A DNA stretch of 64,000 nt from Duganella sp. (GTDB lineage: Bacteria > Pseudomonadota > Gammaproteobacteria > Burkholderiales > Burkholderiaceae_D): positions 73,562-137,561 of the forward strand of contig NZ_JBCNLB010000009.1 in assembly GCF_039595735.1 (NCBI RefSeq). Reading direction: 5' to 3'. Each line of letters begins with the position of its first letter. Position 1 is the stretch's first letter. Made by a program: the position numbers and the translations under genes. The notes below the pieces were generated by a model that was given only the letters and a program-made list of their open reading frames with translations, did not search any database and had not been told where the DNA came from. Positions 14,030 through 21,799 of this stretch are shown piece by piece.

Positions 14030-14043
14030 TGATATCGCTATCA
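14030..14043. promoter_or_regulatory. GntR(LacI)-type operator 1
   Basis: TGATATCGCTATCA near-palindrome upstream of the regulator gene. Confidence 0.65.
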
Positions 14044-14063: not shown

Positions 14064-15092
14064 ATGACCAAGACTCAAGCCGGCAAGAGCCGCGCCAGCG
14101 GCCGTATCACCCTCGCCATGGTGGCCGAGCGGGCTGGTGTGGCCACCATGACCGCCTCGCGCGCCATTACCCAACCGGAGATGGTGTCGCAGGCGCTGCG
14201 CGACCGCGTCGATGCCGCGGTGGCCGAGCTCGGCTATGTGCCCAACCGCGCCGCCCGCGCCCTGGCCTCGTCGCAATCCAAGGTCATTGCCGTGCTGGTG
14301 CCGTCGCTGTCGAACGCGGTGTTTACCGAGGTGCTGGCCGGCATCCAGGATGCGCTGGACGCCGACGATTACCAGATCCTGATCGGCAACACCCGCTATT
14401 CCGACAAGGAAGAGGAAAAACTGATCAACACCTACCTGCAGTCGAATCCGGACGGCATGCTGCTGTCCGGCCTGAGCCACAGCCCGCGCGTGCAGCAAAT
14501 CCTGTCCACGCTGCGCATGCCGGTGGTGTCGATGATGGACATGTCCACCGATCCCGAGCAGTACACCGTGGGCTTCTCGCAATTCCAGGCCGGCCACGCC
14601 ATGACGCGCTACCTGCTGGACAAGGGCCACAAGCGCATCGGCTTCATCGGCGCGCAGTTGGACGAACGTACCCTGCGCCGCGCCGAAGGCTACCGCAAGG
14701 CCATGCAGGAAGCCGGCCGCGCCGACGCCAAGCTGGAGGTGATGGTGGCCGAGCCATCCACCATCGCGCTGGGCGCCGAGCTGCTGGGGCGCATGCTGGC
14801 TCAGGCGCCCGATTGCGACGCCATCTTCTGCTGCAACGACGACCTGGCGCACGGCGCCATCTACCAGTGCCAGCGGCGCGGCATTGCCGTGCCGGCCCAG
14901 CTGGCGATTTGCGGCTTCAACGACCTGCCGGCCTCTGCCTGGATGAATCCGTCCCTGACCACCATCGGCACGCCGCGCTACCGCATCGGCTACGAGGCGG
15001 CCGCCCTGCTGCGCTCGGTCATCAAGGGCGAACAGCCGGCCACCCGCCAGATCGACCTGGGCTTCACCCTGATGGCACGCGAAAGCGCCTGA
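14064..15092 (+). CDS. gntR: LacI-family regulator, GntR (gluconate) type
   Basis: ITLAMVAERAGVATMTASRA HTH, LGYVPNRAARALAS, CGFNDL; adjacent to gluconokinase. Confidence 0.88.
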   Translation: MTKTQAGKSRASGRITLAMVAERAGVATMTASRAITQPEMVSQALRDRVDAAVAELGYVPNRAARALASSQSKVIAVLVPSLSNAVFTEVLAGIQDALDADDYQILIGNTRYSDKEEEKLINTYLQSNPDGMLLSGLSHSPRVQQILSTLRMPVVSMMDMSTDPEQYTVGFSQFQAGHAMTRYLLDKGHKRIGFIGAQLDERTLRRAEGYRKAMQEAGRADAKLEVMVAEPSTIALGAELLGRMLAQAPDCDAIFCCNDDLAHGAIYQCQRRGIAVPAQLAICGFNDLPASAWMNPSLTTIGTPRYRIGYEAAALLRSVIKGEQPATRQIDLGFTLMARESA

Positions 15093-15171
15093 TCGACACG
15101 GCGGCCGTCTGCTGCGCCGCACCATCGATAGTGCTTTACAAATTTCGCAATCCGTCTAAACTCGTCGCATC

Positions 15172-15185
15172 TGTTAGCGCTATCA
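15172..15185. promoter_or_regulatory. GntR(LacI)-type operator 2
   Basis: TGTTAGCGCTATCA, 5 nt before the gluconokinase ATG. Confidence 0.7.
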
Positions 15186-15190
15186 TTCAT

Positions 15191-15703
15191 ATGCTCAAAA
15201 GTGTACAAACGAAGTCGGCGCGCTGGGTCGTCATGGGCGTCAGCGGCTGCGGCAAAAGCTCGGTTGGGTTGCAGCTGGCCAGCGCGCTGGAAGTGCCCTT
15301 CCTGGAAGGCGACACTTACCATTCCTATGAAAACGTGGCCAAGATGACGGCCGGCGTGGCGCTGACCGATGCCGACCGCGCCGACTGGCTGTGGGCGCTG
15401 CACCGCGAAATCCGCGAAGCCCGCCTCAAGCACTCCGGGCTGGTGCTGTCCTGTTCATCATTGAAACGCCGCTACCGCGACCTGCTGCGCAGCGCCGATC
15501 CGGAATTGCGCTTCGCCCACCTGGCCGGCCCGCGCGAGCTGATCGCCGGGCGCATGGCCGCGCGCAAGGACCACTACATGCCCACCACCCTGCTGGACAG
15601 TCAACTGGCCACGCTGGAACCGCTGGAAGATGACGAAGCCGGCATCGTGCTGGACATCGTCCAGCAACCAGCCGAACTGGTGCGGCAGATTCTAAGAATA
15701 TAG
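15191..15703 (+). CDS. gntK: Gluconokinase (GntK/IdnK type)
   Basis: VVMGVSGCGKSS P-loop, LTDADRADWL, CSSLKRRYRD and YMPTTLLDSQLATLE. Confidence 0.93.
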   Translation: MLKSVQTKSARWVVMGVSGCGKSSVGLQLASALEVPFLEGDTYHSYENVAKMTAGVALTDADRADWLWALHREIREARLKHSGLVLSCSSLKRRYRDLLRSADPELRFAHLAGPRELIAGRMAARKDHYMPTTLLDSQLATLEPLEDDEAGIVLDIVQQPAELVRQILRI

Positions 15704-15715
15704 TTACCGCTATCA
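15702..15715. promoter_or_regulatory. GntR(LacI)-type operator 3
   Basis: AGTTACCGCTATCA between gntK and the transporter gene. Confidence 0.6.
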
Positions 15716-15794
15716 AAGAGCTCTCCCCGGAACTTTAACCAGTTCCGTTCAGGCAGTGTTACGCTGCCTGCTTTTACAAGCGTATGAGAACAAC

Positions 15795-17132
15795 GTGAAC
15801 AAACAACTGACCTGGCGCGAAAAAATCAGCTACGGCGTGGCCGACATGGGCTTCAATTTTTATTGGACCAACGTCGCCACCTTCCTGCTGATTTACTACA
15901 CCGACACCTTCGGCATTTCAGCCGCAGCGGCCGCGTCTATGATGTTCACGATCAAAATCATCAACGCATTCACCGACCCCATGATCGGCGCCGCGGCCGA
16001 CCGCACCAGCACCCGCTGGGGCAAGTTCCGCCCTTACCTGATCTGGGTGCCGCTGCCGCTGGCCTGCGCGGCCTTCCTTACCTACACCACGCCCGACCTG
16101 TCGGAAGATGGCAAGATCATTTGGGCCTACGGCACTTACCTGGCCATGATGGTGTGCTACACCTGCATCAACATCCCGTACAACGCCCTGTCCGGCGTGC
16201 TGTCGGCCGATGCGCAGGAACGCTCCACCGTCAACGGCCTGCGCTTCATCTTCGCCTTTGCCGGCGGCACGCTGGTGACGGCAGCCACGCCGTGGCTGGT
16301 GCACCATCTGGGCGGCGGCAACGACAAGCTGGGCTGGCAGCTGACCATGCTGGCGTGGAGCGTGTTTGCCTCCGTGTTGTTCGTGCTGACCTTCCTCAAC
16401 ACGCGCGAGCGCATCGCCCCGCCCGCCGAGCAGAAGACCAATGTCTGGCAGGACGTGCGCGACCTGTCGCAGAACCGCCCGTGGGTGGCGCTGTTCTTCC
16501 TGGCGCTGATCATCATGATCACCATCACGCTGCGCACCAGCAGTGCGGCCTATTACTTCAAGTACGTGGTGGAACGCCCGGACCTGATGGCGGGCTTTGT
16601 GCCGGCCTACATGATGGCCGCCGCCGCCGGCGCCTCGCTGACGCCGCTGATGACGCGCTTCATCGATAAAAAGAAGCTGATGATGATCCTGATGAGCATC
16701 ACTGCCGTGCTGTCCTCGGCCTTCTTCTTCGTGCCGAAAGACCAGATCTGGCTGATGTTCGCGCTGCAGATCGGCATGGGCCTGGCGCTGGGGCCGAAGT
16801 CGCCGCTGGCCTTCTCCATGTACGCCGACACCGCCGACTACAATGAATGGCGCACCGGCCGCCGCGCCACCGCCATGACCTTTGCCGCCGCCACCTTCTC
16901 GCAAAAGCTGGGCACCGCGGTCGCGGTGGCGGTGATCGGCGCCATCTTCACCAGGCTGGGCTATGTTGCCAACGCCGCGCAGACGGCGGTGTCGCAGGCC
17001 GGCATCGTCTGGCTGATGTCCTTTATTCCCGCTGTCTTCGCGCTGCTCGCGGTGGCGGTCATGTTCTTCTACAACCTCGATAACCACAAACTGCTGCAGA
17101 TCCAGAAGGATCTGGAAGCGCGCAAATCCTGA
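15795..17132 (+). CDS. Glycoside-pentoside-hexuronide (GPH/MFS) symporter
   Basis: [46 protein letters not shown] and QKLG motifs; GTG start assumed. Confidence 0.92.
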
Positions 17133-17139
17133 CGGAGAG

Positions 17140-19515
17140 ATGTCTATGTTACGCCCCACCCACAACGGCGACCGCTATGAACTGACCAGCGCCACGGCCA
17201 TGCCGCAGGCGGCCGGTTTCCTGTGGAATCAGAAGATGATGATACAGATCACCTGCCGCGGCTACGCCACCGCGCAGTTCATGCAGCCGGAACCGGCCAA
17301 GTACGCGCATGCGCCGAATCTGGAAGCCAAGACCTTCATGCAGCCGGAGCAGAACTACTACGCCCACCACCCGGGCCGCTTCTTCTACATCAAGGATGAG
17401 GAAACGGGCGAGCTGTTCTCGGCGCCGTACGAACCGGTGCGTGCCAAGGTCGGCAGCTTCAATTTCTCGGTTGGCAAAAGCAATCTGGCCTGGACCGTCG
17501 AGCACCTGGGCGTGCGCGTCGAACTGACCCTGAGCCTGCCGGTGGCGGATGTGGTGGAACTGTGGTCGCTGCGCGTGACCAACATCTCGGGCCGCGCGCG
17601 CAAGCTGAGCGTCTATCCCTACTTCCCGATCGGCTACATGTCGTGGATGAACCAGTCCGGCGAATACCGTGCCGACCTGGGCGGCGTGGTGGCCAGCAGC
17701 GTCACGCCGTATCAAAAGGTGGCCGACTATTTCAAGCAGAAGGACTTCAAGGACAAGACCTACTTCCTGTGCGAGCAGACGCCCGACGCGTGGGAAGTGC
17801 GGCAGTCGGCCTTCGAAGGCGAAGGCACGCTGAACCGTCCGGAAGCCATCGACGCCGAACAACTGGGCAACAGCGACGCGCGCTACGAAACGCCCACCGC
17901 CGTGGTGCAATACCGCCTGGCGCTGGCCGATGGCGAAGCGCGCGATTACCGCTTCCTGTTCGGCCCGGCGTTTGACGATGCCGAAATCAAGGCCGTGCGC
18001 GCCAAATACCTGAGCGCCCAGGCCTTCGCCGCCACGCAGCAGGCATACGCGGCCTACATCGCCAGCGGCACCGGCTGCCTGCGCATTGCAACGCCGGACG
18101 CCGACCTTGACAACTTCGTCAACCACTGGCTGCCGCGCCAGGTGTTCTACCACGGCGACGTCAACCGCCTGAGCACCGACCCGCAAACCCGCAACTACCT
18201 GCAGGACAATATGGGCATGAGCTTCATCAAGCCCAGCGTGATGCGCGCCGCCTTCCTGCACGCGCTGTCGCAGCAGGAAGCCAGCGGCGCCATGCCGGAC
18301 GGCATCCTGCTGGCGGAAGGTGCCGAGCTCAAGTACATCAACCAGGTGCCGCACACCGATCACTGCGTGTGGCTGCCGGTGGCGCTGAAAGTCTACCTCG
18401 ACGAAACCGGCGACTACGACATCCTCAACGAGGACGTGGTCGGCGCCGAATCCGGCGTCGCCCTCACCGTCTCCGAGCGCGTGAGCAGCGCCATGGACTG
18501 GCTGCTGCAGGCGCGCGACAAACGCGGCCTCAGCTACATCGCCCAGGGCGACTGGTGCGACCCGATGAACATGGTGGGCTACAAGGGCCGCGGCGTGTCC
18601 GGCTGGCTGACCGTGGCCACCGCTTACGCGCTCAACCTGTGGGCCGAGATTTGCGAAACCACCGGCGCCAGTTCCTCGCTGGCGGAAAGCGCCAGGCACT
18701 TCCGCGCCGGCGCGCGCGCCGTCAACCGCGCCGCCAATGAACACTTCTGGGACGGCGAGTGGTTTGCACGCGGCATCACCGATGACGACGTGGTGTTCGG
18801 CACCAGCAAGGACCAGGAAGGCCGCATCTGGCTCAATCCGCAGGCGTGGGCCATTCTGGGCGGCGCCGCCAGCCCGCAACAGCACGCGTCGATGCTGGCC
18901 CAGGTCGATGCGCAACTGGTGACGCCATACGGCGTGCAGATGTTCGCGCCGCCATTCAGCGCCATGCGCGACGACGTCGGCCGGGTGACGCAAAAACACC
19001 CGGGTTCGGCCGAGAACGGCGCGGTGTACAACCACGCTGCCGTGTTTTACATCTACAGCCTGTACAGCATTGGCGAGAGCGACCGCGCCTACCAGTTGCT
19101 GCGCCGCATGCTGCCCGGCCCGAGCGAGGCCGACTACGTCCAGCGCGGCCAGCTGCCGGTGTTCATCCCCAACTATTACCGCGGCGCCTGGCACGAATAT
19201 CCGCGCACGGCCGGCCGCTCCAGCCAGCTGTTCAACACCGGCACGGTATCGTGGGCTTACCAATGCTTTATCGAAGGCCTGTGCGGCTTGAAGGGCAATG
19301 CCGACGGCCTGGTGATCAAGCCGCAGCTGCCGTCGCACTGGGATGGGATCAAGGTGGTGCGTCAGTTCCGTCATGCTACTTTCAATGTGTCTATACAACG
19401 TGGCGACGTCAGCGAGATTCAGGTCTGGCATGACGGCAAGCGTTTGACTGAAAACGTTTTCACCGGTATCGTTGCGGGCGGAGCATATGCGCTGGAGGTT
19501 TTCATCCCGCGCTGA
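17140..19515 (+). CDS. GH94 glycoside phosphorylase, cellobionic acid phosphorylase type
   Basis: [48 protein letters not shown] (catalytic Asp), HPGSAENG and LFNTGT closely follow my recollection of characterised Saccharophagus/Xanthomonas CBAP sequences. Confidence 0.88.
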
Positions 19516-19552
19516 TTGATTAATTCAAATAACTACAAGGACAATTTACTGT

Positions 19553-21799
19553 ATGAAAAAGCGTCTCTGGCTGTCTCTGGCACTGGCTTATCCACTCATT
19601 CTGACCGGCGCCGCGCACGCCGCAGACGCAAACCAACCCTGGCTGAATCCCGCGCAGTCGCCAGAAGCGCGTGCCGACCAGCTGGTCAAGGCCATGACGC
19701 TGGATGAAAAAATCCAGACCGTGTTCGCCTATTTCTCGACCGAGTTCTCGCCAAAGAAATACGAGCAGCCGAAAGACGGCCGTCCTGACTCGGCTGGCTG
19801 GGTGCCGGGCGTGCCACGCCTGGGCCTGCCATCGCAATGGCAGTCGGACGCCGGCGTCGGCGTCGCCACCCAGGCCGTGTCCAAGAAACCGTATGAGCGC
19901 ACTTCCCTGCCCTCGGGCCTGGCCACCACCGCCACCTGGAATCCGAAGCTGGCCTTCGCCGGCGGCGCCATGATCGGCAGCGAAGCCCGTTCGACCGGCT
20001 TCAACGTGCTGCTGGCCGGCGGCGTCAACCTGATGCGCGAGCCGCGCAATGGCCGTAACTTTGAATACGGCGGCGAAGATCCGCTGCTGGCCGGCATCAT
20101 GGTGGGCGAGCAGATTCGCGGTATTCAATCCAACCACATCATTTCCACCGTCAAGCACTACGCCTTCAACGACCAGGAAACCAACCGCAACCACGTCAAC
20201 GTCAAGATCGAAGACAAGGCTGGCCGCATGTCGGACCTGCTGGCGCTGCAATTCGCCATCGAGCGCGGCAATCCAGGCTCGGTCATGTGCGCCTACAACC
20301 GCGTCAACGGCGACTACGCCTGCGAGAGCGATTACCTGCTGAATGAAGTGCTGAAGCAGGACTGGAAATTCAAGGGCTACGTCATGTCCGACTGGGGCGC
20401 GACCCACTCCACCATCCCGGCCGCGCTGCGCGGCCTGGACCAGCAGTCCGGCTTCCCGTTCGACAAATCGGATTACTTCAACGCGCCGCTGAAAGAAGCG
20501 GTGGTCAACCGCCACGTGCCGCAGGCGCGTCTGGATGACATGGTCAAGCGCATCACCTGGGCCATGTTTGCCAACGGCGTGGTCGAGCATCCGGTGGCGA
20601 CGCCAACCTCGGCCGACGCCGGCATCGATTTCGACGCCCACGGCAAGGTCACCCAGGCCGACGCTGAAGAAGCCATCGTCCTGCTGAAGAACCACAACAA
20701 CCTGCTGCCGCTGGCGGCCGGCGTGCGCAGCGTCGCCATCATCGGCGGCCACGCCAACGTTGGCGTGCTGTCGGGCGGCGGCTCGGCCCAGGTGTATCCG
20801 AAAGGCGGCTCGGCCGTGCCGAACGAAGGCCCGACTTCGTTCCCTGGTCCGATCGTGTATCACCGTTCGTCGCCGATGGGCGAACTGGCCAAGCTGACCA
20901 AGGCCAAACTGAGCTACAACGACGGCAAGGACGTGGCCGCCGCGGCCAAGCTGGCCGCCAACAGCGACGTGGTGATCGTGTTCGGCACCCAGTGGATGGC
21001 CGAAAGCTTCGACTCGGACGATCTGAACCTGCCAAACAAACAGGATGACCTGATCGCCGCCGTGGCCAAAGCCAATCCGAAAACCGTGGTGGTGCTGCAG
21101 ACCGGCGGCCCGGTCGTGATGCCATGGCTGAACAATGTTGGCGCGGTGCTGGAAGCCTGGTATCCGGGCACCAACGGCGGCGCGGCCATCGCGCGCGTGC
21201 TGGCCGGTGAAGTCAACCCGTCCGGCCGCCTGCCGGCCACCTTCCCGGCCTCGCTGGCGCAGCTGCCGCGTCCAAAACTGGATGGCGACGCCAAGACCAA
21301 GGATGAAAACATCATCGAGAAGGTCACCACCGACTACAACATCGAAGGCGCAGCCGTCGGCTACAAGTGGTTCGACCTGAAAGGCCACAAGCCGCTGTTC
21401 CCATTCGGTTACGGCCTGTCCTACACCAGCTTCGCCTATGACGACTTGAGCGCGCAGGCTGCGGGCAACGGCATTGCCGTCACCTTCAGCATCAGGAACA
21501 CCGGCAAGCGCGATGGCAAGGCCGTCGGCCAGGTCTATGTGTCGCCAGTGTCGGGCGGCTGGGAAGCGCCAAAGCGCCTCGGCGGCTGGGACAAGCTGGA
21601 GCTGAAAGCCGGCGCCAGCGGCAAGGCCACGGTGCAGATCGATCCGCGTCTGCTCGGCGTGTACGACAGCGCCAGCAAGACCTGGAAGATCGCCGCCGGC
21701 GAGTACCTGGTCACGCTGGCTGATTCGGCCGGCGCCAAGCCAGCCGCCAGCGTCAAGGTCAAGCTGGACGCCAAAACGGTGGACGTCAACGGCCGTTAA
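19553..21799 (+). CDS. Secreted GH3 beta-glucosidase
   Basis: Sec signal peptide; NLMREPRNGRNFEYGGEDP, VKHYAFN, VMSDWGA nucleophile; C-terminal Fn3-like domain. Confidence 0.95.
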   Translation: MKKRLWLSLALAYPLILTGAAHAADANQPWLNPAQSPEARADQLVKAMTLDEKIQTVFAYFSTEFSPKKYEQPKDGRPDSAGWVPGVPRLGLPSQWQSDAGVGVATQAVSKKPYERTSLPSGLATTATWNPKLAFAGGAMIGSEARSTGFNVLLAGGVNLMREPRNGRNFEYGGEDPLLAGIMVGEQIRGIQSNHIISTVKHYAFNDQETNRNHVNVKIEDKAGRMSDLLALQFAIERGNPGSVMCAYNRVNGDYACESDYLLNEVLKQDWKFKGYVMSDWGATHSTIPAALRGLDQQSGFPFDKSDYFNAPLKEAVVNRHVPQARLDDMVKRITWAMFANGVVEHPVATPTSADAGIDFDAHGKVTQADAEEAIVLLKNHNNLLPLAAGVRSVAIIGGHANVGVLSGGGSAQVYPKGGSAVPNEGPTSFPGPIVYHRSSPMGELAKLTKAKLSYNDGKDVAAAAKLAANSDVVIVFGTQWMAESFDSDDLNLPNKQDDLIAAVAKANPKTVVVLQTGGPVVMPWLNNVGAVLEAWYPGTNGGAAIARVLAGEVNPSGRLPATFPASLAQLPRPKLDGDAKTKDENIIEKVTTDYNIEGAAVGYKWFDLKGHKPLFPFGYGLSYTSFAYDDLSAQAAGNGIAVTFSIRNTGKRDGKAVGQVYVSPVSGGWEAPKRLGGWDKLELKAGASGKATVQIDPRLLGVYDSASKTWKIAAGEYLVTLADSAGAKPAASVKVKLDAKTVDVNGR

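Follow-up and report, generated by a model that had tools for sequence, protein, structure and literature searches.

Gene cluster and its distribution

We analyzed a 64,000-nt stretch of DNA from Duganella sp. (GCF_039595735.1, contig NZ_JBCNLB010000009.1), hereafter the window, whose positions serve as coordinates. Between positions 14064 and 21799 of the + strand it carries five genes, coding for a LacI-type repressor (gntR), a gluconokinase (gntK), a GPH-family symporter, a GH94 phosphorylase, and a GH3 enzyme, and this single-strand composition, already named in the original prediction, was borne out by profile matches. The cluster very likely represents a GntR-controlled cellobionate utilization system of Duganella species. 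The pathway itself is known, and the cluster extends known cellobionate phosphorolysis without changing any concept. The genes and the elements around them were located as follows.

14030..14043, unstranded: GntR box 1, TGATATCGCTATCA, read from the sequence, its core matching Pseudomonas GntR operators
14064..15092, + strand: gntR, LacI-family gluconate repressor of the Pseudomonas type, 342 aa (NF052440)
15135..15162, + strand: sigma-70-like gntK promoter, TTTACA-16-TAAACT, with 9/12 matches in a consensus scan; predicted function
15172..15185, unstranded: GntR box 2, TGTTAGCGCTATCA, between the -10 element, which it closely follows, and the gntK ATG 6 nt further on
15191..15703, + strand: gntK, gluconokinase, 170 aa (TIGR01313, P-loop)
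15702..15715, unstranded: GntR box 3, AGTTACCGCTATCA, which shares bases with the gntK stop codon; a putative weaker operator of the auxiliary type
15728..15777, + strand: two leader hairpins (15728-15747 and 15751-15769) in the spacer between gntK and the symporter gene, from an RNA fold
15795..17132, + strand: GPH-family symporter, 445 aa, candidate cellobionate:H+ importer (TIGR00792, synteny)
17140..19515, + strand: GH94 cellobionic acid phosphorylase (CBAP), 791 aa, assigned from Pfam domains, a PDB match and active-site residues
19553..21799, + strand: exported GH3 beta-glucosidase-like enzyme, 748 aa (Pfam, signal peptide, SDW motif)

In a survey of one genome per species, relatives of the phosphorylase were found in at least 598 records, and the best 80 loci were compared. 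These belonged to Duganella, Rugamonas, Massilia, Pseudoduganella, Telluria, Cellvibrionaceae, Rhodanobacter, Rhodoferax, and one Bacteroidota metagenome-assembled genome, with the Duganella relatives showing 82-96% identity to the window GH94. All five genes lay within the fetched locus in 18 of the 80, and the identical five-gene order was found in 14 Duganella-type genomes; since the same order recurs in this way, the arrangement is not due to chance. Co-occurrence was assessed among 151 genomes from the same family, of which five carried the phosphorylase (CBAP-positive) and 146 did not (CBAP-negative).

Phosphorylase, candidate importer and gluconokinase

GH94 enzymes combine a supersandwich domain with an (alpha/alpha)6 catalytic domain, and the window protein matched the Pfam models of both (PF06165 at 96 bits and PF17167 at 190 bits, respectively). 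When all PDB sequences were searched, it gave an end-to-end match of 1277 bits to SdCBAP from Saccharophagus degradans (PDB 4ZLE), compared with 191 bits for chitobiose phosphorylase, 178 for cyclic glucan synthase, about 137-145 for cellobiose phosphorylases, and 47 for laminaribiose phosphorylase. In SdCBAP, Arg609, Lys613, and Gln190 of the partner subunit reportedly bind the substrate carboxylate and Asp472 is said to be catalytic, according to the work of Nam et al. from 2015. The retention of these residues had been chosen beforehand as a check on the assignment, and in the alignment all four were kept, as R615, K619, Q192, and D474 of the window GH94; the set was invariant in 80/80 orthologues, and in chitobiose phosphorylase the carboxylate-binding Arg and Lys are replaced by Phe and Val. 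With 1277 bits against at most 191 and these residues kept, the enzyme thus did not cluster with the cellobiose, chitobiose, or laminaribiose phosphorylases, and these observations strongly suggested that it is a CBAP (EC 2.4.1.321) orthologue, as originally predicted. Since it has no signal peptide, it is predicted to be cytoplasmic. Close homologues carry the name cellobionic acid phosphorylase at JGI and NCBI, and the enzyme assignment is therefore not new. Separately, a GH94 protein (P0117) recorded as coming from the fungus Zopfia rhizophila was 73% identical to the window phosphorylase, which would reflect either an unusual cross-kingdom conservation, or transfer, or contamination.

The open reading frame of the GPH symporter opens with GTG at 15756, and the start conserved across species is GTG at 15795, marked by the conserved GTGAACAAACAACTG. 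The protein exceeded the family cut-off (TIGR00792, 393.5 bits against 231.35; PF13347, 320.6 bits) and stayed below those of the characterized subfamilies YagG (370/610 bits), UidB, a glucuronide carrier model (276/528), and MelB (199/456). It formed a separate orthogroup, its paralogues being at most 40% identical. Its gene lay directly upstream of the CBAP gene, on the same strand, in 74 of the 80 loci, or 74 of the 77 whose upstream DNA sufficed; of the six exceptions, three were cut by a contig end. The other three, L016 (Rugamonas aquatica), L017, and L059, have sufficient upstream DNA yet no GPH gene, and in L016 gntR directly abuts the GH94 gene. Orthologues with at least 75% identity were found in 4/5 CBAP-positive genomes, always adjacent to CBAP, the fifth genome being a fragmented assembly, and in 0/146 CBAP-negative genomes, with all remaining GPH matches at or below 40%. 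Such adjacency and co-occurrence strongly suggest, by association, that the symporter carries the substrate of the phosphorylase, and we therefore consider it the likely cellobionate importer. It is probably proton-coupled, since of the cation-site residues of MelB, Asp59 is kept and Asp55 is replaced by Asn. A comparison of the MelB sugar pocket was dropped, as Asp19 and Asp124 are Asn in the GPH protein but also in neutral-sugar-type paralogues. Our literature search returned no description of a bacterial cellobionate importer, the founding CBAP papers lying outside that search, so that earlier remarks on neighboring genes are possible; for E. coli, the importer is stated as unknown (PMC4403981).

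The gluconokinase named in the original prediction was likewise supported, with TIGR01313 (GntK/IdnK type) at 177.5 bits against a cut-off of 113.75 and the P-loop GVSGCGKS. A gluconokinase gene was present in 46/80 loci of unrelated layouts, including a divergent arrangement in Cellvibrio. Two congeneric CBAP-negative genomes keep gntR-gntK with no GPH, GH94, GH3, TonB-dependent receptor (TBDR), or gntP gene nearby, and because these congeners keep the pair alone, an ancestral gntR-gntK pair seems to have gained the GPH-GH94-GH3 module later.

Predicted GntR control within and beyond the cluster

The gntR product matched the GntR_PSEAE equivalog NF052440 at 539.5 bits against a cut-off of 400, together with Pfam LacI helix-turn-helix and Peripla_BP_1/3 domains; its scores with the E. 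coli GntR and IdnR models did not reach their cut-offs. For GntR of Pseudomonas, footprinting has located operators with an AGCGCT/TAGCGCT-type core, and gluconate as well as 6-phosphogluconate act as its effectors (PMC5902321, PMC12195362). In the window, three 14-bp boxes precede gntR, gntK, and the symporter gene, respectively. Box 1 shares bases with a -10-like hexamer, TATGAT, located 21 nt ahead of the gntR ATG, and was identical, in the same place, in 14/14 Duganella-type loci; it is likely the autoregulation site of gntR. Box 2 was kept with 0-1 change in 14/14 of these loci and box 3 in 11/14, being absent in L008 and L009.

Where no gntK intervenes, the promoter and box stand directly before the GPH gene. 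This was seen with a TTTACAAAT...TACACT promoter, in many Massilia, Telluria, and Pseudoduganella loci with a TTGACA-N17-CATACT promoter followed by TGTTAGCGCTAWCA directly upstream of GPH-GH94, and in Rugamonas and Massilia with a -35/-10 pair and then TGTTAGCGCTAWCA. The module therefore appears to belong to the GntR regulon across the Oxalobacteraceae. In the Cellvibrio loci the GntR box is absent, and the LacI protein is another one, at 43% identity. As for the predicted induction by gluconate, the part that stood is that predicted GntR operators precede the units as in Pseudomonas, which supports a gluconate-responsive control of the cluster, but the identity of the inducer is still an inference.

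In the spacer between gntK and the GPH gene, the second of the two hairpins is followed by the GCTTTTAC T run and is thus terminator-like. The leader RNA folded at -27.1 kcal/mol (z = -2.9), and across loci the stems are kept while the loops vary, with hairpin 1 covarying across Duganella species (GGAAC/GTTCC vs GGGGT/GCCCC). The hairpins were present only where gntK precedes GPH, and an Rfam scan of the whole cluster gave no match, so that they belong to no RNA family described there. Possibly they form a leaky terminator of gntK, by which the amount of kinase would be balanced against that of transporter and phosphorylase.

We then consider the boxes across the genome, which is 99.98% complete. 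Six sites, box 2 of the cluster among them, differed from the palindrome TGTTAGCGCTAACA by at most one mismatch, and none turned up in any of six genomes simulated with a third-order Markov model. Matches with up to two mismatches were dropped, as their number (~40 sites) was roughly that expected by chance. Outside the cluster, boxes were associated with the following features.

C3:332184-337104, - strand, outside the window: second gluconate locus with gntK2, a TBDR of 998 aa, and a GntP permease
C9:58726-61675, ~12 kb before the window start: paralogous TBDR, 972 aa, 65% identical to the C3 receptor
C4:287292-289511: GH9-HbpS fusion gene, with a CelD_N domain, a signal peptide, and an HbpS-like (haem-degrading type) C-terminus
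C38:7250-8107: secreted ThuA-like protein (PF06283), preceded by a TTGACC-N17-TAGACT promoter and then box TGTTAGCGCTAACT

The gntK2 product is 67% identical to that of the window gntK, and box AGTTAGCGCTAACA lies just upstream of its gene. Of two boxes at the C9 receptor gene, a near-perfect one precedes the ATG by ~18 nt (61662) and the other is intragenic (60045). In five loci of Massilia and Telluria (L034, L038, L048, L054, and L058), GPH, GH94, GH3 (in some), gntR, gntK, TBDR, and gntP are contiguous, and L013 holds only the receptor and gntK of the gntK-TBDR-gntP set; the contiguous order suggests that in this Duganella genome one and the same system is divided between two loci. TBDR orthologues were found in 4/5 CBAP-positive genomes and in 1/146 others, a co-occurrence suggesting that outer-membrane uptake, too, is dedicated. 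The edd gene is present in the genome, outside the cluster. Hence, the view of the cluster as complete and self-contained did not hold: the TBDR, GntP, and a second gluconokinase lie in a same-box locus elsewhere, and edd, too, lies elsewhere in the genome.

At the C4 locus, the GH9 gene is divergent from an amidohydrolase gene and a further TBDR gene, and its 5' end bears a perfect TGTTAGCGCTATCA box that falls within the annotated coding start. This box was kept only in relatives with a ~91% identical protein; because of this level of identity and its place within the coding start, its conservation is not independent evidence and the gene is a candidate only. That the ThuA-like gene would belong to the putative GntR regulon was not expected.

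Proposed route, alternatives and known systems

The GH3 protein contains the N-terminal (PF00933), C-terminal (PF01915), and Fn3-like (PF14310) domains of its family and the SDW nucleophile motif in YVMSDWGA, and its best solved relatives are beta-glucosidases; no NCBIfam equivalog reached its cut-off, the best scoring 386 against 1300. The enzyme had been predicted to be secreted: the Sec-type signal peptide (MKKRLWLSLALAYPLILTGAAHA/AD), which has no lipobox cysteine, supports export, but the enzyme is no less likely to reside in the periplasm. A beta-glucosidase trims C1-oxidized cello-oligomers mainly to cellobionate and has little activity on cellobionate itself (PMC5778151), whereas NCU08755 of Neurospora hydrolyzes cellobionate (PMC4537572). 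Trimming is the role we prefer for the GH3 enzyme, since a beta-glucosidase stops mostly at cellobionate (PMC5778151).

We propose the following flow. Externally made cellobionate and longer Glc(n)-gluconate would cross the outer membrane, likely via the same-box TBDR of the second locus, after which the exported GH3 enzyme would strip glucose from the non-reducing end of the longer oxidized oligomers to give cellobionate, possibly hydrolyzing the latter as well. The GPH symporter would bring cellobionate into the cytoplasm, probably with protons, where the GH94 enzyme is predicted to convert cellobionate and Pi to alpha-glucose-1-P and gluconate. GntK would phosphorylate gluconate to 6-phosphogluconate, which would enter the Entner-Doudoroff pathway via Edd. 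GntR would sit on the three boxes until released by gluconate or 6-phosphogluconate, by analogy with Pseudomonas GntR; as these inducers would be products of the pathway, a basal uptake would start a positive loop.

Several observations weigh against this flow. GH3 was linked to CBAP in only 22/80 loci and the genome has two ~60%-identical GH3 paralogues (C6:99939-102071 and C3:387987-390176), and because of these two facts the specific role of GH3 is the weakest step. The substrate of the GPH protein is assigned by genomic association alone, and the MelB pocket residues, which do not separate it from its paralogues, say nothing on a carboxylate substrate. Box 3 is degenerate and missing in two species, the effector of GntR could differ from that in Pseudomonas, and the terminator-like hairpin stands before GPH-GH94-GH3, genes that it would have to let be transcribed. 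The C6 paralogue of GH3 adjoins another LacI-family gene.

Among the alternatives, the one that survives best, though we consider it unlikely, is a mainly periplasmic route, in which GH3 cleaves cellobionate to glucose and gluconate, gluconate enters via GntP and is phosphorylated by GntK, and GPH and CBAP play a minor part or act on another beta-glucoside. The signal peptide of GH3 and the GntP of the box-bearing gntK2 locus would suit it, and a branched pathway of such kind exists in Neurospora crassa (PMC4537572). However, GPH-CBAP is the conserved core (74/80 loci) and GH3 an accessory (22/80), the full conservation of the CBAP active site argues for its continued use, and the only beta-glucosidase tested, that of almond, showed little activity on cellobionate (PMC5778151).

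A slightly less probable alternative concerns the origin of the substrate: a periplasmic dehydrogenase or oxidase of the bacterium itself could oxidize cellobiose released by its own glucanases, including the box-associated GH9, like the glucose-to-gluconate route of Pseudomonas, and no cross-feeding would be involved. In its favor, the box at the 5' end of the GH9 gene is of the perfect class and another precedes the secreted ThuA-like gene, and P. putida Gcd has been proposed to oxidize cellobiose (10.1101/284182). On the other hand, the 99.98%-complete genome contained no lytic polysaccharide monooxygenase (LPMO) domain of the LPMO_10 (AA10) type and no membrane pyrroloquinoline quinone (PQQ) glucose dehydrogenase (101 bits at best against a cut-off of 833), GMC and other soluble oxidoreductases being outside this survey. 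The sole PQQ protein found resembles the alcohol dehydrogenase type, and no oxidoreductase was found in or beside the cluster.

The lack of LPMO_10 and of a membrane glucose dehydrogenase fits the scavenging of cellobionate made by others. Oxidative cleavage of cellulose yields aldonic acids, the fate of which in soil is poorly mapped. Cross-feeding on fungal oxidation, as first predicted, was therefore retained in part: an external source is plausible from the missing enzymes, but fungi are one option of several, the others being plant cellodextrin oxidases and the glucose dehydrogenases of other bacteria. One homologue of the BBE family, from a moss, is reported to be a cellobiose oxidase (PMC6001459).

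A third alternative, that GPH-GH94 handles another beta-glucosyl acid such as glucosyl-glucuronate, or that GPH carries a neutral glycoside, with gntK a legacy of an ancestral gluconate operon, appears very improbable: SdCBAP reportedly also takes glucuronate as acceptor, in the 2015 work of Nam et al., and some GPH members carry glucuronides (the UidB score above being below its cut-off), but the enzyme matches a biochemically defined CBAP at 1277 bits with every known subsite +1 residue kept, and a gluconokinase in 46/80 loci of unrelated layouts is hard to explain unless the product is gluconate.

Preferring the importer-phosphorylase route, we tentatively put forward, at somewhat less than even odds, that the GPH protein is the first bacterial cellobionate importer to be identified, acting within an envelope-spanning system of TBDR, periplasmic GH3, and GntR, by which LPMO-less and apparently non-oxidizing rhizosphere Oxalobacteraceae would scavenge oxidized cellulose fragments from fungi, plants, or bacteria. 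New here are the widely conserved importer candidate, the outer-membrane receptor candidate, and a delimited GntR regulon. If confirmed, the module would be useful for engineering strains that consume LPMO products, and would serve as a genomic marker for bacteria feeding on oxidative cellulolysis by others.

The phosphorylase step for cellobionate has been known since 2013. Known CBAPs of GH94 (EC 2.4.1.321) include SdCBAP (PDB 4ZLE/4ZLF/4ZLG/4ZLI) and XCC4077 of Xanthomonas campestris, reportedly described by Nihira in 2013 and Nam in 2015. The window enzyme shares with them the full-length match, the two-domain layout, and the kept catalytic and carboxylate-binding residues, match and residues having been tested against SdCBAP; no functionally distinctive feature was detected in this betaproteobacterial orthologue, whose placement after gntR-gntK is lineage-specific.

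A parallel in activities is the aldonic acid pathway of N. crassa, made up of the CBT-1 transporter, the NCU08755 beta-glucosidase, the CAP phosphorylase, and a gluconokinase (PMC4537572), since the same four activities (external beta-glucosidase, importer, phosphorylase, and gluconokinase) are predicted here, with the same logic. In the bacterium the genes are clustered, and a TBDR and a LacI-type repressor come in addition. CBT-1 is a sugar-porter-type transporter of the major facilitator superfamily, whereas the transporter here is of the GPH family, the two being set apart by family description rather than by sequence comparison.

With the gntR-gntK(gnuK)-gntP system of Pseudomonas (PMC5902321, PMC12195362), the cluster has in common an equivalog-level regulator, a TAGCGCT core lying across or after the -10 element, and the predicted control of gntK and of gntR itself. 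Here, however, the regulon appears widened to the importer, phosphorylase, GH3, TBDRs, and possibly GH9, with gntP in the second locus. The Xanthomonas-type CUT loci, which Blanvillain et al. reportedly described in 2007 as comprising a TBDR, an inner-membrane transporter, a glycoside hydrolase, and a LacI-family regulator, show the same envelope-spanning design and the co-occurrence of the receptor with the catabolic genes, whereas the Duganella receptor is unlinked and tied in only through the shared operator. The AscB route of E. coli employs a phospho-beta-glucosidase, probably with phosphotransferase-type uptake, and has neither a phosphorylase nor a GPH transporter. E. coli uses cellobionate as a carbon source, as is predicted for the Duganella bacterium, and its importer is likewise unidentified (PMC4403981).

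As to the surroundings of the cluster, guaA, guaB, and genes for PEP-CTERM proteins and a DUF4124 protein flank it upstream and a convergent gene for a solute-binding protein flanks it downstream; since these genes are unrelated, the boundaries of the cluster are correct.

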